Origin: Chloroflexota bacterium
Lineage (GTDB): Bacteria; Chloroflexota; Dehalococcoidia; Lucifugimonadales; UBA3495
NCBI GenBank assembly: GCA_028875055.1
Contig: JAPPGG010000072.1
Location: forward strand, 51,032-115,031
Direction of reading: 5' to 3'
Length of the DNA: 64,000 bases
In this document: piece by piece, positions 40,504-54,739 of the stretch
How positions within the stretch are numbered: the first letter of the stretch is position 1
Layout: each line of letters begins with the position of its first letter
Translations under genes and position numbers: made by a program
Notes under the pieces: model-generated
Database searches by the model: none
What the model saw: the letters and a program-made list of their open reading frames with translations, nothing else
What the model was told of the DNA's origin: nothing

Positions 40504-41964
40504 ATGCCGGTGCGGACTGGTGCGGAATATCTGCAGGGGTTGAGGGACCGTCCTCCCGAGGTGTGGGTGGGCGGAGAACGGGTAAAGGATGTCACGGTCC
40601 ATCCTGGATTTGCCAACGGCGCCAGGTCCGTCGCCGCCCTCTATGACATGCAGAATGAGCCCGGCCTTCGCGAGGAAATGACCTATCTTTCCCCGGCATC
40701 GGGCGAACGTGTAGGCCTGTCCTTCATCGCGCCGGAAAATCTCGAAGACCTGGAACGGCGGCGCGGGATGTTCTACAGGTGGGCCAGCTGGCACGGCGGC
40801 ATGATGGGACGGACTCCCGACTATATGAACGCCGCCTTCGTGGCAATGGCCTCCGCCGCTCCTTATTTCGACCAGGACCGGAAGGGCTTTGGCGACAATG
40901 TCAGGAACTACTATGAGCTGATCCGCGAGCAGGACCTGTGCCTCACCCACACCCTCGTTAATCCCCAGCGCAGCCGCTCTCCCCAGCGTTACATTACCGA
41001 TTCCCTGGCCGAGGACGTAGCCCTGAAGGTTATCCGGGAGACTGATGCCGGCATAGTGGTGCGCGGCGCGCGGGTGCTGGCCACCCTGGGTCCGCTCTCC
41101 GACGAGATCGCGGTCTATCCTTCCCGCTCGCACCACACCGCCGACAACGCCGAGCAATATGCCGTGTCCTTCTCCATCCCCAGTAGCACCCCCGGTCTGC
41201 GCTACATTTGCCGGGAGAGTTTTGACTACGGCCGTTCTCCCTTTGACCATCCCCTGGGCTCCCGCTTCGAGGAAATGGACGCGGTTGCCATTTTCGATAA
41301 CGTCCTGGTTCCCTGGGAGCGGGTTTTCCTGCTGGGCAGCGTGGAAAGCTGCAACAATATGACCAACCGGACGGGCTGGATCTTCCACAGTTTCCACCAG
41401 GTGGTCACCCGCATCCTCGCCAAGACCGAGTTCCTCCTGGGCACCGCCTCGCTGATGGTGGAAACCCTGGGCTCCGGGGAACAACCCCACGTTCAGGAAC
41501 GCATCGCCGAGATGATAATGCAGCTGGAAATCATCAAGGCTTTGCTGCGGACGGCCGAGGTGGACGCCGCCCCGGACGAATGGGGTCTCCTGACGCCGGC
41601 CCGGTTTCCCCTGACCGTCGCGGAGAATATGTACGCCCGGAGCTTCTACCCCCGGATGGTGGAGATTATGCAGCTGCTGGGCTCCAGCAGCCTGATGGCC
41701 CTTCCCAGCGAAGCCGATTTCGACTCTGAGATTGGCCCGGACCTTCAGCACTACCTGGCCACCGACACCGCTACTGCCATAGACCGTACCAGGCTTTTCC
41801 ACCTGGCCTGGGATATTTCCTGCAGCGCTTTTGGTTCCCGCAGCCTGCACTACGAGCGTTTCTTTGCCGGCGACCTGGTACGCAACGCCCAGATAATGTA
41901 CGCCACCTACGACCGCTCACCCATGATGGACGCCGTCCGCCGGTTCCTGGAACGGGAGGGCTGA
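40504..41964 (+). CDS. HpaB-family flavin-dependent monooxygenase oxygenase component (4-hydroxyphenylacetate 3-monooxygenase-like)
   Basis: MPVRTGAEYLQGLRDRPPEVWVGGERVKDV is the typical HpaB N-terminus. 486 aa with an acyl-CoA-dehydrogenase-like fold. Confidence 0.85.
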   Translation: MPVRTGAEYLQGLRDRPPEVWVGGERVKDVTVHPGFANGARSVAALYDMQNEPGLREEMTYLSPASGERVGLSFIAPENLEDLERRRGMFYRWASWHGGMMGRTPDYMNAAFVAMASAAPYFDQDRKGFGDNVRNYYELIREQDLCLTHTLVNPQRSRSPQRYITDSLAEDVALKVIRETDAGIVVRGARVLATLGPLSDEIAVYPSRSHHTADNAEQYAVSFSIPSSTPGLRYICRESFDYGRSPFDHPLGSRFEEMDAVAIFDNVLVPWERVFLLGSVESCNNMTNRTGWIFHSFHQVVTRILAKTEFLLGTASLMVETLGSGEQPHVQERIAEMIMQLEIIKALLRTAEVDAAPDEWGLLTPARFPLTVAENMYARSFYPRMVEIMQLLGSSSLMALPSEADFDSEIGPDLQHYLATDTATAIDRTRLFHLAWDISCSAFGSRSLHYERFFAGDLVRNAQIMYATYDRSPMMDAVRRFLEREG

Positions 41965-42129
41965 CAACGCCGCCTTCCCACGACCACAGCCTGCGTCCCC
42001 GCACCCGGCGCTTGCCCTTTGACCGGCCACTCTTCTTAACTTGCCCCTGCCGGCGGCCGTGATCCTCGTCATCCGATGCTGGCGGGCCACAATTCGGCCT
42101 GTGCATTGCCGGCAATTGCTGAAGGGGCC

Positions 42130-42303
42130 CTACCGCCATTCCTTCATAGAATCCGCAATCCTCTCTGGGTAGTCCGGCCCCGCCAGCAGCAGCGCCGACC
42201 GCTCCGGGTTTTCCGAAAGGCGCGAGGTCAGCACGCAGCCCGATGAACCCGCTTCCGCCACGATTACGCCGTACTTCAGGGCTAAGTCTCCAGTCCCGGC
42301 ATT
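42130..42303 (-). pseudogene. Remnant of the N-terminus of a GMC-family oxidoreductase
   Basis: The minus strand reads ...LKYGVIVAEAGSSGCVLTSRLSENPERSALLLAGPDYPERIADSMKEWR*. Compare [41 protein letters not shown] of the intact GMC gene at 47349. There is no start codon, the GxGxxG motif is degraded, and a stop follows after about 50 codons. Confidence 0.55.
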
Positions 42304-42395
42304 GTATTCAGGGGAATTATCGCGGGCGGGGTGGCCAGGGACGGACCGCGCCTCTCCAGGAACCAGCGCTCAATAGCCGCAGTGACCTTTGACCC

Positions 42396-43109
42396 TCAGG
42401 CGGATGCGCCCTCCAGCGCTTCCCGGGCCTGGTGGAAAATGGTGTCAAACATTTCCGTAGTAAGCTTACCCGTCTGGGTGTTCTGGCGGCTGGGATGGTA
42501 GGAAGAGATCAAGGTCACGCCACCTTCCATCTCCCTAGTTGCGCCATGCCCGAATTTCGGCAAAGGCCGGGGATTGGCCAGGCCGGCCGCAGCGCGGGTT
42601 TGCAGGTAAGCATCGAAGGCAAACTTGCCCAGCGCCACCACTACCTCGACCCGCTGCAGCAGTTCCAGTTCCAGGACCAGGAAGGGCTGGCATTCCGACT
42701 TCTCCGCAGGTAACGGCTTGTTTTCCGGCGGGGCGCAACGCACGGCATTGGTAATGTAGGCATCCGTCAAAGCCAGCCCGTCATCCAGGGACAGGGAAGA
42801 GGGCTGGTTGGCGAACCCGGCTCGGTACAACGCCCCGTAGAGCCAGTCCCCGCTGGGGTCTCCCGTGAAGGAACGACCGGTCCGGTTGCCGCCATGGGCC
42901 GCCGGCGCCAAGCCCAATACCAGCAGCCGCGCGTTGCAGTCGCCAAATGGTGGCACAGGTCTTCCCCAGTACTCCTGGTCACGGAATCTGGCCACCTTTT
43001 CCCTGGCAACCTTCTCCCGGTGGGCCACCAGCCGTGGACACCGGCTGCATTCGACTATTTGCCCATGAAGGGCTGAAAGAGATTGAGCTTGACCCAAGTT
43101 CATCTGCAC
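42396..43109 (-). CDS. Uracil-DNA glycosylase superfamily protein (family 5 / UdgB-like)
   Basis: CSRCPRL (Fe-S Cys), GLAPAAHGGNRTGRSFTGD motif A and SSYHPSRQN motif B. Confidence 0.8.
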   Translation of the reverse strand: MQMNLGQAQSLSALHGQIVECSRCPRLVAHREKVAREKVARFRDQEYWGRPVPPFGDCNARLLVLGLAPAAHGGNRTGRSFTGDPSGDWLYGALYRAGFANQPSSLSLDDGLALTDAYITNAVRCAPPENKPLPAEKSECQPFLVLELELLQRVEVVVALGKFAFDAYLQTRAAAGLANPRPLPKFGHGATREMEGGVTLISSYHPSRQNTQTGKLTTEMFDTIFHQAREALEGASA

Positions 43110-43142
43110 CCGGGGGCGACACCCCTGCCAGGCCCTGGCTTT

Positions 43143-44228
43143 CTAAGCCGTCTTCGCCACGTTGAAGTGGGGCATCACCTCTTCAGCGAAGAGCTGGAGG
43201 GAATGAAGAGTTTGCTCGGTGGTCAGCGAGCCAAAGAAAAAAGAACCCACGAAGTAGTTGGACCCGGTGATGTCCAGGTGTTCCTTCAGAGTCCGGGTTA
43301 CCGTCTCAGGCGAACCGACTATGTGCAGCCCGTCAGCCAGCCTTCCGTCGAAATCCGCCAGGTACGCGGTCCTGCCGGTGTCATCCCCGTTGAGTATGCG
43401 CAGGTGGTTGAAGTTGGCAATAAAATCGGCAAAAGCATCCCTGGCTTCTTTCAAGGCCCTCTCATCCGTGTCAGCCAGGTAAATGTGCCGGGTAATGCCG
43501 AACTTCGGTTCCTCCTCGTGACCGTTCAGGCGGTCAGACCTGGCCACGTTGTCCTGGTAAACTCCCTTGTAGAGTTCTATGTGCTCCCGCATCACTTCCA
43601 TCGGAGGGTAATGGGTGACGGTACTGATGCCCTCGGCGGCAATCCAGCGTATCGAGTCCGGGTTCGCCGTGGGATACCAGAGGGGCGGATAGGGCTGCTG
43701 CCATGGCCGGACGGGAAGCGTCACGTCCTTGAAGGTATAGTGCTGTCCCTCATAGTTGACCTTTCCCGTCTTGAGTCCCATCAGGAGAATGTCCAGGGAT
43801 TCCTGGAACATGCTCCGCGACTCATCCACAGAGATGTCGAAGAAGTCCAGCTCATAAGCCGAGATGCCCCGGCCCAGGCCAACTTCCAGCCGGCCCCGGC
43901 TCAGGTTGTCCAGCATGCAGATTTCCTCTGCCAGCCGCAGGGGATTGTAGAAAGGTAGCGGATACACCAGCGGACCCATGCGCAGGTTCCTGGTGCGCTG
44001 GAACGCCGCCGAAAGAAAAACGCTGGGAGACGGCGCCATCCCCAGGGGCGTCCCCTGGTGCTCTGCCATGTGGTAGCAGTAGAAGCCGGCCCGGTCAGCG
44101 TACTCCAGAAACTTCAGCCGTTGTTCGTACAGATCGGCTGCATCGCCCCCATTGGAATCAATCCAGTCGAAAATTCCGAACCTGACGGGTGCGGCTCTCC
44201 CTTCGGCAGCCAGTCTTTCCACCATCAC
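43143..44228 (-). CDS. LLM-class (luciferase-like) flavin-dependent oxidoreductase
   Basis: 361 aa. VRFGIFD...YHMAEHQGTPLGM and an overall luciferase-like TIM barrel pattern. Confidence 0.85.
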   Translation of the reverse strand: MMVERLAAEGRAAPVRFGIFDWIDSNGGDAADLYEQRLKFLEYADRAGFYCYHMAEHQGTPLGMAPSPSVFLSAAFQRTRNLRMGPLVYPLPFYNPLRLAEEICMLDNLSRGRLEVGLGRGISAYELDFFDISVDESRSMFQESLDILLMGLKTGKVNYEGQHYTFKDVTLPVRPWQQPYPPLWYPTANPDSIRWIAAEGISTVTHYPPMEVMREHIELYKGVYQDNVARSDRLNGHEEEPKFGITRHIYLADTDERALKEARDAFADFIANFNHLRILNGDDTGRTAYLADFDGRLADGLHIVGSPETVTRTLKEHLDITGSNYFVGSFFFGSLTTEQTLHSLQLFAEEVMPHFNVAKTA

Positions 44229-44267
44229 CTATTCTCCGCTGCGAATTCCGACACCGGTCGCCGGTCC

Positions 44268-45866
44268 CTACTCGAAGGGTGTGGGCATGGCTTGAACCGG
44301 GACCTCGATCAAAGTCGGAGCTTCAATCGCCAGGGCTTCCTGCAGGGCCGGCCCCAGCTTGTCGGGCTCCACCCGCACTCCCCGCGCTCCGTAAGCCTCC
44401 GCCAGCTTCACGAAATCGGGATTGTGCAGCGCGGCCCCATATACCCGTCCTTCAAACCGATTGACCTGGTCTCGCAGCACGTTGCCGTAGGCGTTGTCGT
44501 TGAAGACCACCACCACCGCATTGATGCCGTATTGCACCGCCGTGGCCAGTTCCTGGGAATTGAACAGGAACCCCCCGTCTCCCGACACTGCCACCACCGC
44601 CTTGTCCGGCTGCGCTACCTTGGCGCCCAGGGCCACCGGATAAGCGTAGCCCAGGTTTCCGGCGTATGAAGACGTCAAGAAGGTGCGAGGCTCATAGACC
44701 GGGTAAAAAGCCCGGCAGTAATAGCCTATCTGCGTCATGCCGGAAATCAGTATGCCGTCATCGGGCATGACTTCCCGGATAGTGGCGGTAAGGGACTCCT
44801 GCGGCTCCACCCGGATTGCGGAATTGGCCCGACGCTGGCGAAGGGCATCGAACTCGGCTGCCCTGCTCTCCCGGGCCGGCGTCAGCTGTGAGACCTGCGC
44901 GTAGAGGTCCTCCAGGGCCAGTCGGGCGTCACCCTGGATGCCAAAGGTGTTGTCGTAGTTGCGTCCCAGTTCCTCCGGGTCTATGTCGATCTGCACAATG
45001 CGCTGACCGCCCAGCCACGCCGGGTTGGCCATGCGGGTTCCCACCGCCAGTATGGCGTCAAAATTGGGCTCCTCCCTGGCCACGGGGTCATTCCGAAGGC
45101 GGTGGGCGCCCAGGGACAGGGGATGACGGTCGGAAATCGCACCCTTGCCCTCGGGCGAGGTAATGACGGGCGCCTGCAGATGTTCGGCCACGCGAAGCAG
45201 CGCCTCTTGGGCCCCCGAGGAAATTACGCCCCCTCCGGCCCATATCAAGGGATTGTCGGCTTCCGCCATGATCCGGGCGCCGGTGCGGATAGCCTCACTC
45301 TCCGCCGCGGGGCGAGGGTATTCTTCGGGCTCCCGCAGTTCAACATCGGCCATGTCGGCCAGCGTCTCCGGCGGAATCTCAATCTCCACAGGACGGGGGC
45401 GCCCCGTCTTCAGGTGGTAGAAAGCCTCGTGGACGGCGTCGGGAATCTCTGCGGGATCCAGTATCCGTTTCGCCCACTTGGTGACCGGCCGGATGGTGTC
45501 AAGCTGATCGTTCACCTCGTGGAGAATTCCCCGGTCGGCCCCAATCAGGTCGCGCTCAATCTGTCCCGACACCACCAGTATCGGTGAAGAGGCGGCGAAG
45601 GCGGTGCCAATTCCGGCGGAGGCGTTCTGCAGCCCGGGCCCGGGAACCATCATCGCCGTACCCGTGCCGCCGCCGGCCCGCGTGTACCCGTCGGCCATGT
45701 AGGTCGTTGCCTGCTCGTGGCGGGCGGTAATGAACCGGATTCCTGGCTCCCCCTGCAGCCCGTCCAGCGCGTGATAAAGCTGTACCCCCGGGAGCCCGAA
45801 AATTACCCGTACTCCCTCCAGGTACAGCGACCTGGCCAGGGCTTGTCCCCCCGTCATTTTTGGCAT
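44268..45866 (-). CDS. Thiamine-pyrophosphate-dependent enzyme (acetolactate synthase large-subunit-like)
   Basis: MTGGQALARSLYLEGVRVIFGLPG N-terminus and the TPP-binding motif GDGGFLFNSQELATAV...NN. Confidence 0.85.
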   Translation of the reverse strand: MPKMTGGQALARSLYLEGVRVIFGLPGVQLYHALDGLQGEPGIRFITARHEQATTYMADGYTRAGGGTGTAMMVPGPGLQNASAGIGTAFAASSPILVVSGQIERDLIGADRGILHEVNDQLDTIRPVTKWAKRILDPAEIPDAVHEAFYHLKTGRPRPVEIEIPPETLADMADVELREPEEYPRPAAESEAIRTGARIMAEADNPLIWAGGGVISSGAQEALLRVAEHLQAPVITSPEGKGAISDRHPLSLGAHRLRNDPVAREEPNFDAILAVGTRMANPAWLGGQRIVQIDIDPEELGRNYDNTFGIQGDARLALEDLYAQVSQLTPARESRAAEFDALRQRRANSAIRVEPQESLTATIREVMPDDGILISGMTQIGYYCRAFYPVYEPRTFLTSSYAGNLGYAYPVALGAKVAQPDKAVVAVSGDGGFLFNSQELATAVQYGINAVVVVFNDNAYGNVLRDQVNRFEGRVYGAALHNPDFVKLAEAYGARGVRVEPDKLGPALQEALAIEAPTLIEVPVQAMPTPFE

Positions 45867-46021
45867 GTCATTCCCCTTGATGAACAGCAGGTCGCCAGCT
45901 TCGGATTTGCTCCCCGAGAGCGTGGCGCCTTTCTGCGATGTTGAGCCGGATTGTAGTTGGGGTTATCTGGAGCGTCAAGTTGACTCATATCTGTATCAAG
46001 CTGTTGGAGCGGGGCGAAAGC

Positions 46022-46217
46022 CAGGGCAACTGCACTATAGAATCAGGCTACAGGGGGCACAATTCGGTAGGCAGAAGTCATGCCGCCCTGAGCTTGCCGA
46101 AGGGCCTGAAGTCCTCATCCTCAGCCCGGCTGCGGGTAGTGAAGGTGGTTCCAGGGATAGATCTTAGATGCTTCGGCTTCGCTCAGCATGACATTCAATT
46201 AAAACGCGATTGCCCTG
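46022..46217 (+). repeat. Family-A intergenic element, full-length (196 bp) copy
   Basis: Ends CAGGGCAACTGC / GCGATTGCCCTG are complementary. Contains TATAGAAT, the hairpin unit GCCCT-GAGCTTGCCGA-AGGGC, and the oppositely oriented unit ATGCT-TCGGCTTCGCTC-AGCAT. High but imperfect identity, with a few scattered mismatches by eye, to the reverse complement of 48979-49175. Confidence 0.85.
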
Positions 46218-46320
46218 GGAGGAAGGCGCTATGTTGGACGGCTGTCATACCTTTTGCTAAACTTGCCGGCGAAAGAAATCCCACTCAGGCTAATTCCCCG
46301 GCTGGTGGAGGAACAGACCT

Positions 46321-47241
46321 ATGAAGAAAGTGGTCAGCGAAATCAATGGAGCCATTTTCAGTTTGCCCTGGTTGGTCGCCCGGGACGAGGGGCTGTTTGA
46401 GGCGGAAGGCATTGAAATGGAGTTCGTCACCGCCGTCAGCAGCGGCCAGGTGACCCACACGGAGAATCCCGAGGAAGTCAACCCGGTCCTGGGCCACGTG
46501 GCCTTTGAGGATGCCAAGGTCTCCATCTACCGCGCTTGAGAGGAGGGCCAGGTCCGTCGGGCCTACGAAAGCAAGCAGGGCGCCAGGATTATTGCCCTCC
46601 GTTCCGCAGTTGCCAGCCAGGCCATCCTGGTGCGCGGCGACTCGCCCCACTATTATCCGGGAACCCTGGGCAACCGTCCCGTGGCCGTCCAGTTCCACGC
46701 CGGATCCCATTACGTGGCCCTCAGGCTGCTTTCCGGGTACTTGCCCGAGGAAAAGCTCAAGCTGGTCCACTATGGCTCTCCCCAGTACCGGTTCGAAGCC
46801 CTGATGAATGGCGAGGTTGACGCCGCCGCCCTGATGGAACCCTGGATAACCCTGGCGGAAAAGCTGGGTTGCCGTCCCGTCTGTGAAGGCCATTACCTGG
46901 GCGCCGAAAACGCCAGCGACAACATGGATGAGGAGACCTTCGCGGCCATCAACCGGGCAGTGGTGAAGGCCGTGGATATTATTAATGCCGACAAGCGCAA
47001 GTACCTCCACTACCTGATTGACGAACCCAGGTTTGCATCGGTGGCAATCAAGTACGGAAGCATCACGCCTGAAGACTTCCACCTGTCCAGGATCCGCTAC
47101 TCGTACAACACTCCTTACAACGATGAAATCATCGAGGACACCTATCACTGGATGGTTAAGTGGGGTCTGCTGACCGACGCGGCCTGCGCTACCGACCTGG
47201 TGGACAATCGTATTGCTGAGCCCGCGCCTGCTGACGATTAG
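46321..47241 (+). pseudogene. NMT1/THI5-/SsuA-like periplasmic-binding-fold protein without signal peptide, one reading frame interrupted by a single in-frame TGA (46537-46539)
   Basis: Track ORFs 46321-46539 and 46630-47241 are in the same frame. The 90 nt between them also read as sensible protein (EEGQVRRAYESKQGARIIALRSAVASQAILVRGDSP). This is either a recent nonsense mutation or recoding (see finding). Confidence 0.6.
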
Positions 47242-47268
47242 TCCTTTCCGCCCCCGCGCAATTAAATT

Positions 47269-47296
47269 GCCGGCCATAGGAAGCTCCGTGGCCGGC
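47269..47296 (+). terminator. Stem-loop after the NMT1-like gene
   Basis: GCCGGCCA-N12-TGGCCGGC, an 8-bp stem, followed by CTTCTTT. Confidence 0.5.
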
Positions 47297-47348
47297 CTTC
47301 TTTAGCCCCGTCTGACTGCCGCTGTTCCACTCTTTCTCCCGCTGGCAG

Positions 47349-48956
47349 GTGGAAATGAAATACGACGTAGTTATCGTGGGCGCCGGTTCCGCCGGGTGTG
47401 TCCTGGCGGCGCGCCTTTCCGAAGATGCCCGAAAGTCCGTCTTGCTGCTGGAGGCCGGCCCCGACTATCCGGACTTCCAACGGCTTCCCGACGGTCTCAA
47501 GTATGGCTTCGCCTCGTCTCCCAATGCGCCATCCTTCCGGACACCCAGCGGACACCCGAGCTGGCTTACCTCCGACTTCCACAACTGGCAGTTCACCGCC
47601 ACCAGCACAGAACTGGCTCCGCCCATGCTGGTCCCGAGGGGCCGGGTCACGGGCGGGTCCAGCGCCATCAACTCCTCGGCCTTCTATCGCGGCGTCCCCG
47701 AGGACTTCGACGCCTGGGCCGCCCGGGGCAACAGCGCCTGGAGCTACCAGCAGGTCCTGCCCTTCTTCCGAAAGCTGGAGAACGATGCCGACCAGCGGGA
47801 CGACTTTCACGGAATGGACGGCCCCATCTTTGTCCACCACTCCAATCCCGAAAGCTGGCACGCCACCCAGAACGCCTTCTATGAGGCCTGCGTCGCCAGC
47901 GGCCATCCCACCACCGTCGACCACAACAACCCCGACTCCTCGGGAATAGGTCCCGGTATCTCCAACAACCACCAGGGTGTGCGTTACAGCACGGCTTTGG
48001 GCTACCTCGACGAGGCCCGCCACCGCCTGAACCTCACCATCAAGGCCGGTTGTCACGTGAGGCGCATCCTCTTCGACGACAGGCGCGCCGTTGGCCTGGA
48101 GGTCGAGTCCGGTGGCCAGACCTTCACGGTGGAGGGTGAGGACATAGTACTTTCCGCTGGCGCGGTCGGGTCCGCCCACTTGATGCTCCTGTCGGGCGTG
48201 GGACCGGAAGCCCAGCTTGCCGAACAGGGCATTCCCCTGGTGCATGACCTGCCGGGCGTTGGCCGAAACCTGAAGGATCACCCCAAAGTCTACATAACCT
48301 GGGCAGTCCCGGACGACTATCCGCCGCAGAGCCGCGCGGCTCCAGGGGGTACGGCGCTGCGCCTGACCGCCCCCGGCTCGGATTTCAGGAACGACCTCAG
48401 CATCAGCCTGGCCTGCTTCGTGCCGCCCCGTATCCACGACATCAACCCGGCGCTCCGTGAAGGACAGGAAGCGCCCCGTTACGTAGAGATGATGGTGGCC
48501 CTCCTGATGCCGTTGAGCCAGGGTGAACTGCGTTTATCTTCGCCGGACTACCGGGTGCAGCCACGGATGCATTACAACTACCTGGCCGAGCCCTTCGACC
48601 GGGAACGCCTTCGCGCCGGCGTCGGACTTGCCCTCGACTTGGCCCAGCGGCCTGAAATCTCGGAATACGTGGGTGACTTGCTCGACCCCAAGCCTGAAGA
48701 CCTGGCCACTGACGAAGCCCTGGACCGCTGGCTGCGGCGGGAAGCCACCACCTATTCCCACATTTCCTGCACCTGCCGCATGGGACCCGCCGACGACGAA
48801 ATGGCGGTGGTGGACCAGTTTGGCCGGGTCCGAGGCGTTGAGGGATTGCGTATCGTGGATGCCTCCATTATGCCCGACCTGGTTCGCGCCCCCATCAACC
48901 CGGCGGTAATTATGCTGGCGGAAAAAATCGCCGACGCCATGCGTTCGGACCGATGA
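47349..48956 (+). CDS. GMC-family FAD oxidoreductase (choline dehydrogenase-like)
   Basis: [22 protein letters not shown] (FAD GxGxxG), GGSSAINS, and the C-terminal HISCTCRMG active-site region. Confidence 0.9.
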   Translation: [535 protein letters not shown]

Positions 48957-48978
48957 CGTTCCCCCCTTCCACCCGTGG

Positions 48979-49175
48979 CAGGGCAACCGCCCGCCAATTG
49001 CATGTCATGCTGAGCGAAGCCGAAGCATCTAAGATCTATCCCTGGAGCCACCTCCACAGCCCGAAGCCGGGCTGAAGATGAGGACTTCAGGCCCTTCGGC
49101 AAGCTCAGGACGACATGACTCTTGCCAACCGAACTGGCGCCCACTGTCGCCTGAATCTATTACCCGATTACCCTG
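48979..49175 (-). repeat. Family-A intergenic element, full-length copy in inverted orientation
   Basis: The reverse complement aligns end-to-end with 46022-46217, from ...TAGATTCAGGCGACAGTGGGC... to ...GCGGTTGCCCTG. The spurious track peptides VVLSLPKGLKSSSSARLR(A/V)V(E/K)V(A/V)PGIDLRCFGFAQHD occur at both loci. Confidence 0.85.
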
Positions 49176-49293
49176 TCCCCTTCGTGGGCGCCTGCCTCAT
49201 AACCTGCCGTTATCCTGCTATAATTGGGATGTTTTACTTCTTCCCCTTGCCATGACCTGGCCCACTCCAAATCTCTGAGAGGAGGAACACGGA

Positions 49294-50247
49294 ATGGCCG
49301 ATGAATTGCTGGTCCTCCACGAAAAACCTGAAGCGAAATACATGATCGCCGGCTGGCGTCGCCAGTGGTCCAACGGCGGCAGGATATCCAGCGGTCTGCC
49401 CCGCTACCTGATAGAAAAACTGGGCGCGCGCCGCATTGGCCGGCTGGGCGACCAGGTTTCCACCCTCTGCTATCCCTTCCAGGTTGCCGGCACCCACGAC
49501 ACCTTTCGCCCCGGCGCCGCCTTTCAGGATGGCCTGCCCTCCACCCGGATGGCCCGCGAGAACGAGTTTTTCGACGCGGGTAACGGACTTATCATCTTCC
49601 TGGGCGAGGAACCCTGGAGCCGCATCGATATTTACGGCCAGGGCTTCTTCCAGGCCGTCCGCGAGCTGGGAATTGAACAGACGGTGGCGGTGGAAGGCGT
49701 CAACGGCCCGGCTCCCCCCGAATTGGAGCGGCGCATTAACTGCGTTTACAGCCGTTCCGATATGAAAGAAACGCTGGACAGGTACAGCGTCATAATGTCC
49801 AGCCGGGGGTCGGAGGGTCGGCGCGGCCCCACCATTGGCATGGCCATGGTATCCCTGGCCCACTTCGACTATCCGGAAGTGCAGATGTTCCGCCTTGGAG
49901 CCATGGCCCCTATGTATCCCTTCGTCGTCTCCAACAACGAGCAGCTGGGCATCTTCCGCGACCATCGTTCCTTCTACGACATAATGCGGCGGCTCAAGTC
50001 GCTATTCAAGCTGGACATTGACCTGAGCGAGCTGCTGGCCCTGGCGGAAACCGAGTCCAGGGAACTGCAGACCAACCTGGACCGCATCGCGGAAAACAAC
50101 GCCGAAGCCAAGCGCATAATCGAGCAGGTCCGCGCGGACTACGACGTTACACCCTATGTGGAACCGGTGGACCTGGATCCCGCCCTTGACCGCACCCTGG
50201 AGGACATCCTGATGGGCATGTCCGATCCTCCGGAAGAACAGCAATAG
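49294..50247 (+). CDS. PAC2 (proteasome assembly chaperone 2-like) family protein with acidic coiled-coil C-terminus
   Basis: KYMIAGWRRQWSNGGRISSGLPRYLIEKLGA...LIIFLGEEP resembles PAC2-family N-terminal patterns. This is a moderate-confidence recollection. Confidence 0.6.
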   Translation: MADELLVLHEKPEAKYMIAGWRRQWSNGGRISSGLPRYLIEKLGARRIGRLGDQVSTLCYPFQVAGTHDTFRPGAAFQDGLPSTRMARENEFFDAGNGLIIFLGEEPWSRIDIYGQGFFQAVRELGIEQTVAVEGVNGPAPPELERRINCVYSRSDMKETLDRYSVIMSSRGSEGRRGPTIGMAMVSLAHFDYPEVQMFRLGAMAPMYPFVVSNNEQLGIFRDHRSFYDIMRRLKSLFKLDIDLSELLALAETESRELQTNLDRIAENNAEAKRIIEQVRADYDVTPYVEPVDLDPALDRTLEDILMGMSDPPEEQQ

Positions 50248-50312
50248 CTCCCGCAGTATTCAGGGAACCGGAAAACTTGGTAGCGTTGCGATTTAGGTGG
50301 TCTATAGGAGAA

Positions 50313-50335
50313 GGGGCGGGTTTCAAACCCGCCCC
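50313..50335. repeat. Family-C GC hairpin (GGGGCGGG-TTTCAAA-CCCGCCCC)
   Basis: Perfect 8-bp stem. A related hairpin GGGCTGG-CTTCAACC-CCAGCCC lies at 52768-52789. Both sit just 3' of + strand genes. Confidence 0.5.
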
Positions 50336-50401
50336 TACCTGCATTTCAACCCTCCTGCCTGCGCCTTACCATCCAAAATGGAACCCTTCCGAAAAACTTT
50401 C

Positions 50402-50424
50402 GGGGCGGGTGATTCACCCGCCCC
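50402..50424 (-). terminator. Intrinsic terminator of the M24 peptidase gene
   Basis: GGGGCGGGTGA/TCACCCGCCCC palindromic hairpin. On the minus strand it is followed by AAAGTTTTTCGG. Confidence 0.6.
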
Positions 50425-50461
50425 GTTCCAGTTCTGTGCAGCGCTCCGGCCGCAGCCCGGG

Positions 50462-51787
50462 TCAGGCGTGCGCTGCCGGCATGGCCGGGCGATTTCGGTG
50501 CGACTGGCTGTCCCGGGTCGTGTTCAGCGGCCCGTTCGCCGAATAGTACTTTACTCCGGCCACCATCAGTTCCTCCGCCGGGAAGCGGGTAATCACCTGC
50601 GGCCCGTCTGCGGTCACCACCACTTCTTCCTCAATGCGCGCCGCCGACCATCCGTCCGCTGCCGGCCAAAAGGCCTCCAGGGCAAACACCATCCCCTCCT
50701 CAATGGGCTGCGGATGCTCCAGCGAGAACAGGCGGCTGAATATGGGCGCCTCCCAGATATTTAAGCCCACGCCGTGACCGTACTGCAGGGCGAAGGCTGC
50801 CTCCTCGTTGGCGAATCCGAACTCCTCCGCCTTTGGCCAGTCCTTTACAATGTCGGCCGTCGTAATGCCGGGCTTCACTGCTTCGATGGAAATGTCCAGA
50901 ATTTCCCGGCACTTCTTGTATGCGTCAATCTGCGCCTGGGACGCGCTGCCGATGGCCAGCGTGCGGTAGTAGCAGGTCCGGTAGCCCATGTAGCTGTGCA
51001 GAATGTCGAAATATACCTGGTCGCCGGGCCGCAGTATCCGGTCGGCGAAAAGGTGAGGATGGGGACTCGTCCGCTCTCCCCCGATGGCGTTCACCCCCTC
51101 AACGAACTCCGACCCCAGTTCGTACAGCACTTTGTTCACCAGGGCCACCCCGTCGTTCTCCCGCACCCCGGCCCGCAGTTCCTGGTACAGCACATCATAG
51201 GCCGCGTCCACCATGGCGCATGCCGTATTGAGCAGCGTAATCTCGTCCTGCGTCTTGATGCGGCGCGCCTCCAGCATGATTTGCTGGCCGTCAACCACGT
51301 TGATCCCTTCCTTCTGCAGGGCGAACAGCACTACCGGTTCAACCACGTCCACGCCGATGGGTTCGTTCTGCAGCCCCCTGAGTTCCAGCTCCGCCTTGAT
51401 CTTTTTGGCCACATCCTCGGCCAGGTTGGCGGAGGGCGGTGTTGCCCCCCTCAACGTCGATATGCCCGCCCGCGAGCGTTCCCCCAGCCAAGGACAGTAA
51501 AGCTGGTGATGCCGCGCCGCCGAACCAAAGTCCCACAGAATGGGCTCGTCGTCCTGGGGCAGCAGGCAGAACCTTACCAGCTTGTCCAGGGCCCACGTGC
51601 CAATGATGGTAGCCGTCAGGTACCGGATGTTGTTCATATCGAAGGAGAGGATTGCCCCCAGTTCCGACTCCTTCAGGAGCCCCTTGATTCGGTCCAGTCG
51701 CTGGGTTCGGAGGCGCTCGAAGTCAACACGCTCCTCCCAGTCAACATTCATGGTCCCAAAACTCTTGATCTGCGTCACGGCTATCAC
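50462..51787 (-). CDS. M24-family metallopeptidase-fold protein (creatinase/Xaa-Pro aminopeptidase-like)
   Basis: 441 aa. Creatinase-like N domain plus a pita-bread C domain (DILHSYMGYRTCYYRT, HGVGLNIWE, EEVVVVT). Confidence 0.85.
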   Translation of the reverse strand: MIAVTQIKSFGTMNVDWEERVDFERLRTQRLDRIKGLLKESELGAILSFDMNNIRYLTATIIGTWALDKLVRFCLLPQDDEPILWDFGSAARHHQLYCPWLGERSRAGISTLRGATPPSANLAEDVAKKIKAELELRGLQNEPIGVDVVEPVVLFALQKEGINVVDGQQIMLEARRIKTQDEITLLNTACAMVDAAYDVLYQELRAGVRENDGVALVNKVLYELGSEFVEGVNAIGGERTSPHPHLFADRILRPGDQVYFDILHSYMGYRTCYYRTLAIGSASQAQIDAYKKCREILDISIEAVKPGITTADIVKDWPKAEEFGFANEEAAFALQYGHGVGLNIWEAPIFSRLFSLEHPQPIEEGMVFALEAFWPAADGWSAARIEEEVVVTADGPQVITRFPAEELMVAGVKYYSANGPLNTTRDSQSHRNRPAMPAAHA

Positions 51788-51926
51788 CCGAAATGTAGGT
51801 TAGGTAGGTTGCCAGGCCCCGCAGGCAGGCTTGGGCCAGGGCTTGCGGAAGTGTAGTTGGGCCGCCCCTACCTGTCAACCGAAACCCTGACCCGGTGAGT
51901 TCCGCCGGGCGCTACCCAACCGCCAA

Positions 51927-52220
51927 AAAATTCAGAAGGCAAAAGTCATGTCGCCCTGAGCTTGCCGAAGGGCCTGAAAGTCTTGTCTCCAAACCGGTTT
52001 CGGTTCCGAAAGCACGCTTGTTTGTTGGATTCCAGGGGCTGCCTTCAAATCAAGGGTTCCAGCTTCCCAGAGTACAATCTCGTCGTTCCCGCGAAGGCGG
52101 GAACCTCGCCGGCGGTAGTCAAGATTCCTTCTGTTTCAAGCAAGATTAGCCGATTTGACGACAGCCACAGGACTTCTCGCCTTCCATCAGAGTGGCAATC
52201 AATTAAGGCGCGATTGCCCT
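51927..52220 (+). repeat. Composite repeat: family-A 5' and 3' parts with a family-B element nested between them
   Basis: The 5' part AATTCAGAAGGCAAAAGTCATGTCGCCCTGAGCTTGCCGAAGGGCCTGAA and the 3' part CAATCAATTAAGGCGCGATTGCCCTT match family A. The interior holds family-B copy 2. Confidence 0.65.
52042..52162 (+). repeat. Family-B element, copy 2 (left end degenerate)
   Basis: Core TCGTCGTTCCCGCGAAGGCGGGAACCTCGCCGGCGG...AAGATTCC...TTTGACGAC. The left TIR is reduced to CCTTCAAATCAAG. Confidence 0.7.
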
Positions 52221-52327
52221 TGCCTCCCCTTCCACTATTGAAGCGGGCTATGGACTGCTCAACTATAATGGGACGTTGCACCTCGATTGCGGGTGCACTC
52301 CCACTTTCCAATACTGGAGGAAAAACA

Positions 52328-52756
52328 TTGCCTGACAGAATCGAAGTCATCCACACCTCCGACCGGGACCCCTCCGTCAACCTGCCCTACGCCCCCGCCG
52401 TCAAGGTGACCGGCGGGTCCCTGCTGTTCCTCGCCGGCGTCAACGCCGCCAAGGTGTACCACAGCCACCCCCACATCGAGTCGGAATTCGACGACATTCC
52501 CAGCGACATGGAAGGCCAGACCCGCATGGCCCTCGAGAACGTCCGCAAGGGCCTGGAAGCCTGCGGGGCCACCTTCAGCGACGTAGTCCAGGTAACCAGG
52601 TACATCACCAACGTGGACGAACAGGACCAGATGAACGAAGTCTGGTGGGAATACTTTGGCGACCATCGCCCCGGCACCGCCACCATTGAGGTTACTCGCC
52701 TGGCCACCCACGAAAAACTCAAGGTGGAGCTGGCCGCCATCGCAGTCGTGGACTAG
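52328..52756 (+). CDS. RidA/YjgF/TdcF-family (Rid) protein
   Basis: I infer a TTG start at 52328, 7 nt after a perfect GGAGGA (52315-52320). YAPAVKVTGGSLLFLAG...ATIEVTRLA matches the Rid family. The track's 264-aa version runs through the repeats. Confidence 0.8.
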   Translation: MPDRIEVIHTSDRDPSVNLPYAPAVKVTGGSLLFLAGVNAAKVYHSHPHIESEFDDIPSDMEGQTRMALENVRKGLEACGATFSDVVQVTRYITNVDEQDQMNEVWWEYFGDHRPGTATIEVTRLATHEKLKVELAAIAVVD

Positions 52757-52860
52757 ACGAAAGGCGAGGGCTGGCTTCAACCCCAGCCCCCGCCAAAAGA
52801 CCCCGCTTCAGTTGCCCAGGCGATTGGATTTACTGCAATAGGCGACCTGTCGCTCCCCAC

Positions 52861-54549
52861 TCAGAAATCCACTTCCTGGTGCACAATTCTGCCCCCCAGC
52901 ATGGTCAGCACGGAGTGGACTTCAGGTATCTCTTCTTCCGGCATTTCCAGCAGGTCATGGGAGAGGGCCGCCAGGTCCGCCAGCTTTCCCGGCTCAAGGC
53001 TGCCCCTTTCACCCTCATCGAATGAGTACCGGGCGCCACCTTCCGTAAACGCCCGCAGTGCCTCCGGCCGGCTCAACCGCTGGCCTGGACCCAATACCTG
53101 GTCCGTTACCCTCTCCCGCCGGGCCACTGCCGCCCAAAGCGTGGCAAAGGGATTGTAGGGCTTGTTGTCGGTGCCAAAGCTGAAATCTACGCCCATTTCC
53201 AGGTAGCGGCGATGGGCCACTGCGGTCTCCGCCAGTTTCTGGTTGTCCAGGTATGGCGAGCCCCGCAGCCACAGTTCCGTCAGCGGAATGGTCTCCACCA
53301 GCAGCCCCATATCCCGAATCCTGTTCAACTGCTGGTCCGTGGTTTGAAGCACGTGGGCCAGGGTCCATCGCCGGCCCCGCAAAGGAATTTCCCGGTCAAC
53401 ATCCTCAAAAACCTGCAGTACCTCTTCCAGCGGTTCCCTGACCAGCGTATTCACCCTGATGTTGTTCCGTGCCGCCAGCATCACCGCTTCGGCAAAAAAC
53501 TCGGGCGAATGGTAGCTCTGGATGAAGCCGGCCCAGCCGGTATAGGGCAGCAGCGACGAGCGTTCCCCGGCGGTATAGCGATTACCTCCGTACTGAATGA
53601 AGTATCCGCTCACCCGCAGGTACTCGTCGCCAAACCCGGGGCCGGAAAAGGAGTGCCCCCACGACTCCATCTCTCGGGCGGCGTCCGCCACGCTCTGCCA
53701 GTGAGGGCTAACAGTCAGGTTGGCTCGGACCGTCATTTCTCCGGCGTCCCAGACCGTCTTGTAGGCCTGCAGCACTTCGGGCGCGACCCCATGTCCCTCG
53801 TAGGTCCCCGTTGTGCCCACGGAGTTGTAGAGGCGCATCGACTCTTTCAGCGCTTCAACCCTCTGCTGTGCCGTGAATCTGGGCGCCCCTTGCATCAGCG
53901 TAAATTCCACCGATGGGTAGCGACCCGTATCAACGAATACACCTGTTGGCTCCCCGTCCGTGGCCACCTCTATGGTGACGCTGGAATCCGGGGAGCGGGT
54001 GTGCCGGTCTATCCCCGACAGCTGAAGGGCGGCGCTGTTGGCAATGGACACGGCGGGTGGGACGTTCCACGGAGTCCAGATTCCCTTGATGTAAACCGGA
54101 TTGTCCGGCGCCGCCTCGTCCAGGTCGTGCCTGTTGGGGAAGCGGCCCTCTTCCAGCAATTGGGGCATATCAGCGTAGTTGGGCGGGTCTCCAATTGGCA
54201 TGGTGACCACCCATTCCCCGGGCGCCTTGTCCGCCGCCAGTCCCCTTATCCGCTCCTGAATTTCCCTGATGGACCGGAGGCCTTCCAGCGACGGGTAGAT
54301 CGACTTCAAACCCTCCCGGTCCATGTGCGCGTGAATGTCCACTATCCCCGGAATAACGGTTCGCCCGCCGAGGTCGATTGTCCTGGCGCCCGGTCCCGCC
54401 AGCTGCAGCACATCGGAGTCTCTTCCCACTGCCACAATGCGGCTGCCCCGAATGGCCACCGCCTCCTGGATGGAGTCACGTGCGTCCACTGTCAGGACTT
54501 TCCCGTTGTGGAGGACGCAGTCTGCCGCGCCCGCCATAATGCCGACCAT
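52861..54549 (-). CDS. Amidohydrolase-3 (YtcJ-like) metal-dependent hydrolase
   Basis: GKVLTVD...AVAIRGSRIVAVG, and GIVDIHAHMD (HxH). The start ATG at 54549 is preceded by GGGAGG 6 nt upstream. Confidence 0.85.
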   Translation of the reverse strand: MVGIMAGAADCVLHNGKVLTVDARDSIQEAVAIRGSRIVAVGRDSDVLQLAGPGARTIDLGGRTVIPGIVDIHAHMDREGLKSIYPSLEGLRSIREIQERIRGLAADKAPGEWVVTMPIGDPPNYADMPQLLEEGRFPNRHDLDEAAPDNPVYIKGIWTPWNVPPAVSIANSAALQLSGIDRHTRSPDSSVTIEVATDGEPTGVFVDTGRYPSVEFTLMQGAPRFTAQQRVEALKESMRLYNSVGTTGTYEGHGVAPEVLQAYKTVWDAGEMTVRANLTVSPHWQSVADAAREMESWGHSFSGPGFGDEYLRVSGYFIQYGGNRYTAGERSSLLPYTGWAGFIQSYHSPEFFAEAVMLAARNNIRVNTLVREPLEEVLQVFEDVDREIPLRGRRWTLAHVLQTTDQQLNRIRDMGLLVETIPLTELWLRGSPYLDNQKLAETAVAHRRYLEMGVDFSFGTDNKPYNPFATLWAAVARRERVTDQVLGPGQRLSRPEALRAFTEGGARYSFDEGERGSLEPGKLADLAALSHDLLEMPEEEIPEVHSVLTMLGGRIVHQEVDF

Positions 54550-54739
54550 TGCAGACCTCCCAAGTCTGGTCTGTGACCTTTCGTTCTGGCAGGGCGACAG
54601 CGCCCGTGCTCTGCATCCGGTGCCCTTGGAAATCGTACCGAAACCGGAAAGACTATACACTATCTGCCAAATTGACACCCGTACGGCGCCCAATTAGAAT
54701 CAGGCCAAGGCAGAAGTATCAGAAATCAGGAGAAATAGA

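Follow-up and report, generated by a model that had tools for sequence, protein, structure and literature searches.

A TGA-interrupted NMT1/SsuA-like gene of SAR202 bacteria is most likely an intact gene of an uncatalogued selenocysteine protein family

Does an in-frame TGA in an NMT1/THI5-like gene of a Chloroflexota bacterium (GenBank assembly GCA_028875055.1, contig JAPPGG010000072.1) mark a broken gene, or is it decoded? The window, by which we mean the whole 64,000-nucleotide stretch of DNA that was analysed, carries on its forward strand a single reading frame of 307 codons (46321-47241) whose translation contains one internal stop, the TGA of codon 73, in the context VSIYRA-TGA-EEGQVRR. 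GenBank annotates the gene as two hypothetical proteins, MDE2781146.1 and MDE2781147.1. An earlier note, made from the letters of the DNA, had described the TGA as the single lesion of an otherwise intact gene and had placed the two open reading frames (46321-46539 and 46630-47241) in a common frame, and both descriptions hold. It offered four options for the TGA: a very recent nonsense mutation, a sequencing error, selenocysteine (Sec) if homologues carry cysteine, or programmed readthrough. The analysis presented here makes it highly probable that 46321-47241 is one intact selenoprotein gene, in which the UGA is read as Sec by means of a downstream hairpin. The apparently broken gene most likely belongs to a selenocysteine protein family of SAR202 bacteria that has so far gone uncatalogued. 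The features on which the argument draws are collected in Table 1.

Table 1. Positions of the features of the proposed selenoprotein gene, numbered from the first nucleotide of the window.
Feature	Position	Strand	Basis and remarks
Shine-Dalgarno sequence GGAGG	46307..46311	+	9 nt 5' of the ATG at 46321; read from the sequence
Complete gene, very probably for a selenoprotein (306 residues, Sec as residue 73, stop TAG 47239-47241)	46321..47241	+	Single frame; same architecture in the orthologues of 80 genomes
UGA codon, codon 73, very probably read as selenocysteine	46537..46539	+	TGA in 80/80 genome loci; aligns with Cys of homologues
30 codons from the UGA to the first downstream start codon, translated as protein	46540..46629	+	Amino acids EEGQVRRAYESKQGARIIALRSAVASQAIL conserved; variation mainly at third positions
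Putative bacterial SECIS core hairpin AGGUCC-GUC-GGGCCU, 6 bp, apical GUC closed by C-G	46550..46564	+	Starts 10 nt past the UGA; RNAalifold consensus structure

The suggestion that the 90 nt between the two open reading frames also encode plausible protein is borne out by the pattern of variation among relatives. The three codon positions (1/2/3) have nucleotide diversities of 0.13/0.10/0.46 in the N-terminal part, 0.08/0.07/0.42 in codons 82-103 and 0.13/0.08/0.44 in the C-terminal part; third positions are thus 3-6 times as diverse as first and second positions in every segment, and coding constraint is continuous across the TGA. As the codons that directly follow it (46540-46629) are conserved as protein, the ribosome must read through the UGA. 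No site comparable to the GGAGG of the gene start precedes the GTG at 46630, where gene callers begin the 'second' open reading frame, and no internal start is conserved among the relatives, whose called C-terminal fragments span 186 to 219 aa. The exact sequences of both halves are found again in several public assemblies. A simple scan for promoters and terminators gave no informative sites on the + strand.

The TGA occupies the same codon in 80 of 80 related GTDB species-representative genomes, which were assembled independently of one another and include long-read chromosomes. The N-terminal part is intact at 79 of these 80 loci, and the codon before the TGA is GCT in 78 of them. Around 93 metagenome contigs carry the TGA too, in the context IYRA-U-EEGQVRRA. 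Every one of the ~75 database proteins closest to the gene product (64-93% identical) is a 3' fragment within the length range given above, which indicates that gene callers everywhere stop at the TGA. Full-length relatives, which are ~50% identical, have Cys exactly at the TGA position, in the motif YRA-C-EWGQVRR. Cys fills this column in all 19 full-length homologues of the alignment. Among 44 distant representatives its conservation stays at or above 90% down to 25-30% identity, which only a few residues of the wider family attain. The earlier note had made selenocysteine depend on Cys in homologues, and this is exactly what they carry at the TGA; Sec is therefore the supported option among the four offered. 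Neither TGC nor TGT, each one mutation from TGA, is found in any of the 80 genomes.

A second line of evidence is the RNA structure immediately downstream of the UGA. The earlier note had remarked on a GGUC-containing region there, and this proves to form the core of a hairpin of 6 bp. Its pairing is complete (100%) over 76 distinct orthologous sequences, and it is contained in a near-invariant block (46549-46564). Five of the six base pairs never vary in these sequences, while the remaining pair varies on one side only, from C-G to U-G, so that pairing is kept; base-pair covariation is absent because the hairpin hardly varies. The structure is backed by invariance, in the form of synonymous-site conservation, without compensatory changes. 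Codons 77-81, which encode the hairpin, have a normalised synonymous entropy of 0.028, against a gene mean of 0.66, and form the lowest five-codon window of the gene. In six DNA sequences of Cys-type homologues the hairpin is missing, and Q[V/I]RR is encoded there by varied codons.

The consensus model of bacterial SECIS elements by Zhang and Gladyshev, as summarised in PMC13188914, specifies a loop of 3-9 nt with the pattern N1-G-[G/U]-N-N2 and a G in the first two loop positions, a stem of 4-16 bp, a spacing of 16-37 nt between UGA and loop, and a minimum free energy of -7.5 kcal/mol or below. The window hairpin agrees with this model in every respect, having a GUC loop (CGUCG with the closing pair), a stem of 6 bp, a spacing of 16 nt and an energy of -7.6 kcal/mol, and is at the lower limits of the model in its 3-nt loop, its spacing and its energy. 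Taken alone, it has no extra stability over shuffled GC-rich sequence (z = -1.1). As in E. coli fdhF, the prototype with an intragenic SECIS, an in-frame UGA aligned with Cys is followed just downstream by a stem-loop within the coding sequence and, as in other bacterial SECIS genes, G-U opens a small apical loop above a C-G closing pair. The minimal E. coli SECIS is a 17-nt upper stem-loop located 11 nt past the UGA; the window hairpin measures 15 nt and starts 10 nt past the UGA. Compared with the bacterial prototypes, it is small in every parameter and, where those are variable, hardly changes across 80 species.

Other candidate structures were considered and rejected. Pairing between GGAGGGC (+3 to +9 from the UGA) and GCCCTCC (+55 to +61), to which the earlier note had drawn attention, is indeed present in the window sequence, where it belongs to the 69-nt minimum-energy fold, but it is not a conserved element: over the 76 distinct orthologous sequences it pairs in 75.6% of cells, a level that 415 of 500 shuffles also reach. 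The local GGCC/GGCC pairing in the 33-nt minimum-energy fold of the window was rejected because it needs position +9, a freely varying third position of a Gly codon. No extended lower stem is conserved beneath the hairpin, and a scan of Rfam returned nothing relevant, whether cut at the gathering threshold or extended to an E of 10. Approximately 13 metagenome matches to the hairpin outside the family were dismissed as chance matches; several of them fall in DNA for FAD-binding GAGPSGL motifs, where the TGA is out of frame.

None of the genes selA, selB, selC and selD is located within the 64-kb window, and scans for tRNA-Sec in the window and in 60 loci were negative. A scan for same-frame open reading frame pairs across a TGA gave no convincing candidate for another selenoprotein gene in the window. 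The machinery for Sec insertion is documented only through COG counts of published bins: the near-identical SAR202 bin22 has SelA=2, SelB=1 and SelD=1, and Bin87 (locus L027) has the same SelA/SelB/SelD set (Slaby et al., 2017, Table S4). Bin22 is MPMM01 (locus L001), in which the N-terminal part of the gene is identical to that of the window and the C-terminal part 99% identical. The most selenoprotein-rich bacteria include Dehalococcoidia MAGs (PMC13326102).

Several other explanations of the TGA have to be weighed against Sec insertion. A bare in-frame stop in a single sequence is what one would see if a nonsense mutation had only just arisen (a fresh pseudogene) or if this codon had been wrongly sequenced or assembled; however, the TGA recurs in all 80 independent assemblies, long-read chromosomes among them, and in the metagenome contigs, and purifying selection acts on both halves, each of which reappears exactly in public assemblies. 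Both of these proposals of the earlier note are therefore refuted, and we regard either as hardly credible. The idea that TGA is a sense codon throughout the genome (for Trp or Gly, as in codes 4 and 25) has nothing in its favor apart from the in-frame TGA itself, and its probability is next to nil. TGA terminates the Pfam-verified window genes for HpaB, UDG, GMC oxidoreductase and amidohydrolase, as well as other long genes, from which it follows that the genetic code is standard; an internal TGA occurs in 0 of the 18 other long window open reading frames checked, and the residue that homologues have at the site is Cys, neither Trp nor Gly.

The two proteins reported by gene callers and by GenBank could also be taken at face value, as a true split gene whose products, an N-terminal peptide of 72 residues and a C-terminal protein with its own initiation, would come together once translated. 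Against this, the 30 codons past the TGA stay in frame, are conserved at the protein level and hold the core motif of the family, continuous with YRA; the second protein has no conserved start codon or ribosome-binding site, its called versions differing in length as described above; and, in the model of a Cys homologue (P0074, see below), the TGA position is inside a strand-helix junction of one domain. We therefore consider a split gene highly improbable. Programmed readthrough independent of SelB would have a near-cognate tRNA (Trp, Cys or Arg) decode the UGA, with a hairpin that only slows release, and would yield a selenium-free full-length product. The comparative data prove readthrough and a conserved RNA element and do not themselves identify the inserted residue, which is to the advantage of this explanation. 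On the other hand, homologues carry in this column Cys, the residue that usually stands opposite Sec; the hairpin fits the SECIS loop pattern and spacing; the lineage has Sec machinery and many selenoproteins; and a Cys codon, if Cys were wanted, is a single mutation away and is used by none of the 80 genomes. SelB-independent readthrough thus appears quite improbable.

If the UGA is read as Sec, translation would start at the ATG at 46321, with the GGAGG ribosome-binding site ahead of it. The hairpin 3' of the UGA would make release lose out and, by analogy with characterised bacterial SECIS elements, would be bound by the Sec-specific elongation factor SelB together with Sec-tRNA(Sec). Sec would be inserted and translation would continue to the TAG, giving a cytoplasmic, two-lobed protein of 306 residues in which Sec takes the place of an almost invariant Cys.

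The closest full-length Cys homologue (P0074) stood in for the window protein in structure modelling with AF2 (pLDDT 92.6, pTM 0.90). The model displays a type II periplasmic-binding-protein fold, NMT1/SsuA-like and composed of two alpha/beta lobes; the top Foldseek matches are ThiY, SsuA, Thi5 and TauA (TM 0.6-0.75), and DszB is also found. The Sec position is at the end of a beta-strand, as a helix N-cap, inside YRA-U/C-E-x-G-Q-V-R-R, the best-conserved motif of the family. Scores against the NMT1/THI5-like Pfam families tested (PF09084 and PF13379) are below the gathering threshold (NMT1_2, 18.0 bits with a cut-off of 24.7; NMT1, 14.7 with a cut-off of 20.5), and precomputed Pfam matches on Cys homologues are mostly flagged 'faint'. 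In the P0074 model the first beta-strand of the fold begins as early as residue 3 (residues 3-9), and no ABC permease or ATPase genes are found near the window gene. These observations support the earlier prediction that the protein lacks a signal peptide and is cytoplasmic rather than a transporter binding protein; neither the export signal nor the permease/ATPase linkage of the ABC-transporter substrate-binding class is found here.

The importer proteins SsuA, TauA and ThiY share the two-lobed type II fold of the P0074 model (Foldseek E ~1e-13, TM 0.65-0.75), and sequence similarity to SsuA is weak (2x26, E = 8e-5; TIGR01728, E = 3e-5). Unlike these proteins, the window protein has no signal peptide, lipobox or nearby permease/ATPase and scores under the Pfam and NCBIfam cut-offs, while the Cys/Sec motif conserved in its family is missing from the transport proteins. 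The 2'-hydroxybiphenyl-2-sulfinate desulfinase DszB (PDB 2de2/2de3) is a cytoplasmic enzyme with a binding-protein fold like that of the window family and with a catalytic cysteine; it matches the family with an hhalign probability of 90.8% (E = 1.2e-6) and a Foldseek E of 3e-10, at an identity of only 12-13%. The catalytic Cys27 of DszB is at the first strand-helix junction, whereas the Sec/Cys of the window family is at the third. The DszB active site (Cys27, with His60 and Arg70) was not recovered; the hhalign alignment begins past Cys27, and the YRAC/UE.GQVRR segment is an insertion relative to DszB, with no counterpart in the alignment. The HMP-P synthase Thi5/THI5p (PDB 4h67, 4h6d) is likewise cytoplasmic, with an NMT1 fold and its catalytic residues in lobe I (Foldseek E ~1e-13); its profile match is insignificant, with an hhalign probability of 7%. 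Relative to Thi5, the Cys/Sec motif falls within 8 inserted residues that separate the regions of Lys62 and His66; the alignment has a gap at the motif, and CCCFC is absent from the window protein. Placement of the Sec onto the active site of Thi5 or DszB was rejected because at the motif the alignments have gaps or cannot be relied on, and we accordingly make no residue-level claim.

SaoB, SaoX and BtuF-like proteins are also selenoproteins built on solute-binding-protein rather than thioredoxin folds (Haft and Gwadz, 2023; PMC13188914, Table 1). They are exported components of ABC transporters with the Sec motifs CUxxT and UxP, whereas the window protein is predicted to be cytoplasmic and stand-alone, and its family has RA-U-EEG. 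The SaoB and SaoX models NF040727 and NF040735 gave no match in an NCBIfam scan at E up to 0.1, which returned SsuA subfamily models only. The family is absent from the 2026 catalogue of 119 selenoprotein families, and literature searches on SAR202/Dehalococcoidia with selenoproteins, NMT1 or SsuA found no description of it.

The neighbours of the gene in the window are oxidoreductases and a thiamine pyrophosphate (TPP) enzyme. Over 79 loci the recurrent neighbours comprise TPP-dependent 2-oxo-acid decarboxylase-like enzymes and luciferase-like flavin monooxygenases, with no transporter cluster among them. A luciferase-like monooxygenase is the commonest neighbour (30/79 loci) and is directly upstream in the most divergent Sec forms; such enzymes are so numerous, with 73 in bin22, that some adjacency is expected by chance. 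A conserved operon context was rejected, as synteny is limited to ~17-20 close relatives and the neighbours are otherwise loosely conserved.

From the fold, the residue conservation and these loosely conserved neighbours we infer, as a working view, that the window protein either is an enzyme or carries a ligand covalently, its Sec/Cys serving as the nucleophile towards a small anionic substrate bound between its two lobes. Its probable partners are the neighbouring TPP-dependent decarboxylase-like enzymes and luciferase-like monooxygenases. DszB acts after DszA, which is a luciferase-like monooxygenase. By analogy with DszB, one might tentatively propose that the protein is the founding member of a new selenoenzyme class, cytoplasmic and with a solute-binding-protein scaffold, whose Sec nucleophile cleaves C-S or C-C bonds of small anionic organic acids or organosulfur compounds. 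In SAR202 and its sponge-symbiont relatives it would help, alongside flavin monooxygenases and TPP-dependent decarboxylases, to degrade recalcitrant dissolved organic matter; we think this whole proposal possible, though doubtful. Were it true, part of deep-ocean carbon or sulfur turnover would be selenium-dependent.

The carriers of the gene comprise one of the most abundant deep-ocean bacterial lineages together with sponge symbionts, the latter previously noted for their enrichment in SelA and SelB. Hundreds of public SAR202/Dehalococcoidia genomes and metagenomes split the gene into 'hypothetical proteins' or 'NitT/TauT substrate-binding' fragments, and recognition of the Sec codon mends this one recurrent mis-annotation. 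The selenoproteome would gain a family beyond the dominant thioredoxin-like and metal-centre types, one that is predicted to be cytoplasmic and has a binding-protein fold. The unusually compact and invariant putative SECIS (15 nt, 10 nt past the UGA) offers a test case for the requirements of Chloroflexota SelB and for SECIS predictors. Finally, the Sec/Cys pair marks a likely active-site residue for a family that comprises ~650 clusters at 50% identity.

Translated from the + strand, the gene comprises 307 codons with one internal stop, a TGA at codon 73 lying between VSIYRA and EEGQVRR; the ORFs on either side share a frame, and a ribosome-binding site, GGAGG, is located nine nucleotides upstream of the ATG of the first. 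Since translation confirms both the frame and the TGA context, the earlier note was correct in describing a single in-frame TGA that joins two same-frame ORFs. It is highly probable that this TGA represents selenocysteine recoding of a conserved active-site cysteine. Judged from the sequence, the recoding would be directed by a minimal, extraordinarily conserved SECIS hairpin, and the recoded protein belongs to an uncatalogued family of cytoplasmic proteins that share a binding-protein fold and occur widely in SAR202 and related Chloroflexota.

Positions of the gene, its internal elements and its neighbours in the window
Feature	Position	Remark
Run of catabolic oxidoreductase genes	40504-55816	SAR202-typical; includes the gene
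HpaB-type monooxygenase	40504-41964	
Luciferase-like monooxygenase	43143-44228	
TPP enzyme	44268-45866	uncharacterised family NF006122; immediately upstream, divergent
Gene with internal TGA	46321-47241	+ strand
ORF before the TGA	46321-46539	
Immediate UGA context	46534-46546	GCU before UGA, GAGGAGG after
Internal TGA	46537-46539	codon 73
Hairpin	46550-46564	AGGUCC-GUC-GGGCCU, +11 to +25
ORF after the TGA	46630-47241	
Inverted repeat	47269-47305	GCCGGCCA...TGGCCGGC, then CTTCTTT
GMC oxidoreductase	47349-48956	score slightly below MftG cut-off
RidA, amidohydrolase and cupin (bicupin) genes	within 40504-55816	

A search of ~5.8 billion proteins with the read-through sequence as query returned about 75 closest matches (64-93% identity, 186-219 residues) that cover only the part after the TGA, many of them each representing hundreds of member sequences; full-length homologues of ~300 residues appear only from about 50% identity. 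Every aligned full-length homologue carries Cys exactly in the TGA column, within the motif YRACEWGQVRR, which favours the selenocysteine option that the earlier note had made conditional on Cys at this position. We then compared 80 loci from species-representative genomes, comprising SAR202/Dehalococcoidia MAGs, many of them sponge-derived and several of them closed long-read chromosomes. TGA is the codon before the matched C-terminal part in 80/80, preceded in 79 by an intact, conserved 72-codon N-terminal part starting MKKVVSE. In the remaining locus (L062, upstream of 5998) the N-terminal part is out of frame and the upstream translation is unrelated except for a terminal LYRA, owing to a frameshift or a misassembly. 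At codon positions 1/2/3, nucleotide diversity averaged over sequence pairs is 0.13/0.10/0.46 in the N-terminal part, 0.08/0.07/0.42 in codons 82-103, which lie between the TGA and the first codon where translation could restart, and 0.13/0.08/0.44 in the C-terminal part; thus all three segments are under purifying selection as one protein in one frame.

These data bear directly on the other explanations. A fresh nonsense mutation or a sequencing error, both entertained in the earlier note, is at odds with a TGA present in all 80 loci and with purifying selection on both sides of it. In GenBank the two halves are entered as distinct hypothetical proteins (MDE2781146.1 and MDE2781147.1), as a split gene would be, and the codons between them evolve as part of the same protein. 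As to code reassignment, the window's HpaB, UDG, GMC-oxidoreductase and amidohydrolase genes all end normally in TGA, and an internal TGA is absent from each of 18 further long ORFs examined there. All four explanations are rejected or very unlikely.

The element CAGGTCCGTCGGGCCT, starting 10 nt past the TGA, is almost invariant among 81 distinct sequences, and RNAalifold folds them into a single consensus, a hairpin of 6 bp. Each of the 76 distinct sequences preserves all six pairs; the sole stem change is a C to U in L070, turning C-G into U-G, and the sole loop change is a U to G at three loci. The hairpin codons for Q V R R A (CAG GTC CGT CGG GCC) are used in 80, 79, 77, 80 and 80 of the 80 loci, against a codon entropy of 1-2 bits at other four- and six-fold degenerate codons of the gene. 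Normalised synonymous entropy of this five-codon window is 0.028, the minimum for the gene, whose mean is 0.66; the next independent window is at 0.25. In six Cys-type homologue genes this same peptide, Q[V/I]RR, is specified by varying codons, from which the hairpin cannot form. On every parameter the hairpin agrees with the published bacterial SECIS consensus, lying at its lower limits (PMC13188914, Fig. 2 legend): an apical loop of 3-9 nt (here GUC, closed by C-G), an upper stem of 4-16 bp (6 bp), G in the first two loop positions in the pattern N1-G-[G/U]-N-N2 (C-G-U-C-G), a UGA-to-loop spacing of 16-37 nt (16 nt) and an MFE at or below -7.5 kcal/mol (-7.6 kcal/mol). No base-pair covariation was found among the sequences compared because the helix does not vary, and the isolated hairpin does not exceed shuffled GC-rich sequence in stability (z = -1.1); what supports a SECIS is therefore the element's conservation and position rather than its folding energy. 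The long-range pairing of +3 to +9 with +55 to +61 that had been noted earlier does occur in the 69-nt minimum-energy fold of this sequence but is not conserved, with 75.6% of cells pairing across species, no better than shuffles. The codon preceding the UGA is GCU in 78/80 species, a conservation far above that of other Ala codons, and in the window a Shine-Dalgarno-like GAGGAGG follows directly; both may influence locally how the UGA is decoded. The 15-nt hairpin sequence also occurs by chance in L108, L117, L185 and other metagenome loci, as DNA for the FAD-binding motif G-A-G-P-S-G-L with the upstream TGA out of frame, and such copies give false positives when SECIS elements are searched for by pattern.

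There are no sel genes in the 64-kb window, whose only tRNA is tRNA-Pro. The exact 72-residue N-terminal part is also encoded on MPMM01000001.1, which is SAR202 bin22 of Slaby et al. (2017), where the C-terminal part is 99% identical. Table S4 of that study gives SelA=2, SelB=1 and SelD=1 for bin22 and SelA=3, SelB=1 and SelD=1 for bin87 (locus L027), and most sponge-symbiont bins contain both SelA and SelB (Slaby et al., 2017). Dehalococcoidia MAGs with 46-49 selenoproteins are among the richest bacteria (BSepDB paper, PMC13326102). Sec-type genes at 76-79% identity in bins labelled Nitrospinota and Gemmatimonadetes (L065 and L078) point to horizontal transfer or mis-binning. Two metagenome contigs, L134 (3266-3293, 4239-4266) and L152 (matches 973 nt apart), each hold two tandem Sec-type paralogues, every copy with its own TGA and an identical hairpin. 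The most divergent Sec-type copy examined (L191:4725-5660, contig of P0076) keeps TGA and hairpin, and an additional TAG stands in frame at codon 89 in place of the Lys or Arg of other copies. Decay of this copy or an assembly error is the probable cause.

Pfam NMT1_2 and NMT1 match the protein below threshold only, NCBIfam yields only weak SsuA-subfamily matches, and the top PDB sequence match is E. coli SsuA (E = 8e-5). For P0074, the closest full-length Cys homologue, AlphaFold gives a confident model (pLDDT 92.6, pTM 0.90) that resembles ThiY, SsuA, Thi5, TauA, PqqT and DszB (TM 0.6-0.75, identity 12-18%), so that the protein is predicted to have a type II binding-protein fold. In this model Cys76, the equivalent of Sec73, ends strand 72-76 and caps helix 77-86. 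Among 1.84 billion cluster representatives, 151 matched at E < 1e-30, 653 at E < 1e-10 and 2182 at E < 1e-3; across 44 full-length representatives reaching down to 25-30% identity, only 14 positions are at least 90% conserved, including Cys76, Trp78 and Gly79. Sec forms read UEEG, whereas most Cys forms read CEWG and one, P0154, reads CEEG. IMG names the fragments 'NitT/TauT family transport system substrate-binding protein'. The protein lacks a signal peptide because its N-terminus goes directly into beta-strand 1, and no ABC permease or ATPase genes occur in the window or among recurrent neighbours at 79 loci; the cytoplasmic, non-transport reading proposed earlier is thus supported. Profile comparison supports homology to the cytoplasmic cysteine enzyme DszB (90.8% probability), although Cys27 of DszB occupies another position and the Sec/Cys motif is inserted with respect to DszB; the profile match to Thi5 is not significant. 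A short contig (L082:168-2372) carries three head-to-tail Cys-type paralogues, 52%, 44% and 38% identical to the window protein, and MAG GCA_009377745.1 has at least two on separate contigs.

No NMT1/SsuA-like family is among the 119 prokaryotic selenoprotein families and subfamilies of the 2026 catalogue (PMC13188914, Table 1), which includes the families of Haft and Tolstoy (2025) and in which SaoB, SaoX and a BtuF form are the sole entries of binding-protein type. The BtuF form is listed under CDD model cd01144; against the NCBIfam models for the other two, SaoB and SaoX, the window protein gives no match. Such a family is mentioned neither in the GOS selenoproteome and BSepDB papers nor in the main text and some supplements of the deep-Sep paper, and full-text searches pairing selenoprotein terms with SAR202, Dehalococcoidia, SsuA or NMT1 brought up no relevant paper. 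A residual uncertainty is that this new family of a well-known kind of system could sit unnamed in some database or supplement.

The gene order of the window is kept in only ~17-20 close relatives. Luciferase-like monooxygenases are recurrent neighbours (30/79 loci) and in L191 and L192, the most distant Sec forms, occupy the divergent position directly upstream. A long-form TPP enzyme is near the gene at 18 loci, a split sulfopyruvate/phosphonopyruvate-decarboxylase-like TPP pair lies directly downstream at ~13, and TPP enzymes are near two of six Cys forms; Family III CoA-transferases are neighbours at 16 loci and also adjoin the Cys form L081. These associations are weak evidence for metabolism of small organic acids or organosulfur compounds, since these genomes hold very many paralogues of this kind; bin22 alone has 73 COG2141 genes (Slaby et al., 2017). 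Our confidence in any specific biochemical function for the protein is accordingly low. The 8-bp GC-rich inverted repeat 28 nt past the TAG stop, missed by the terminator scan because its loop is 12 nt, may be a terminator.
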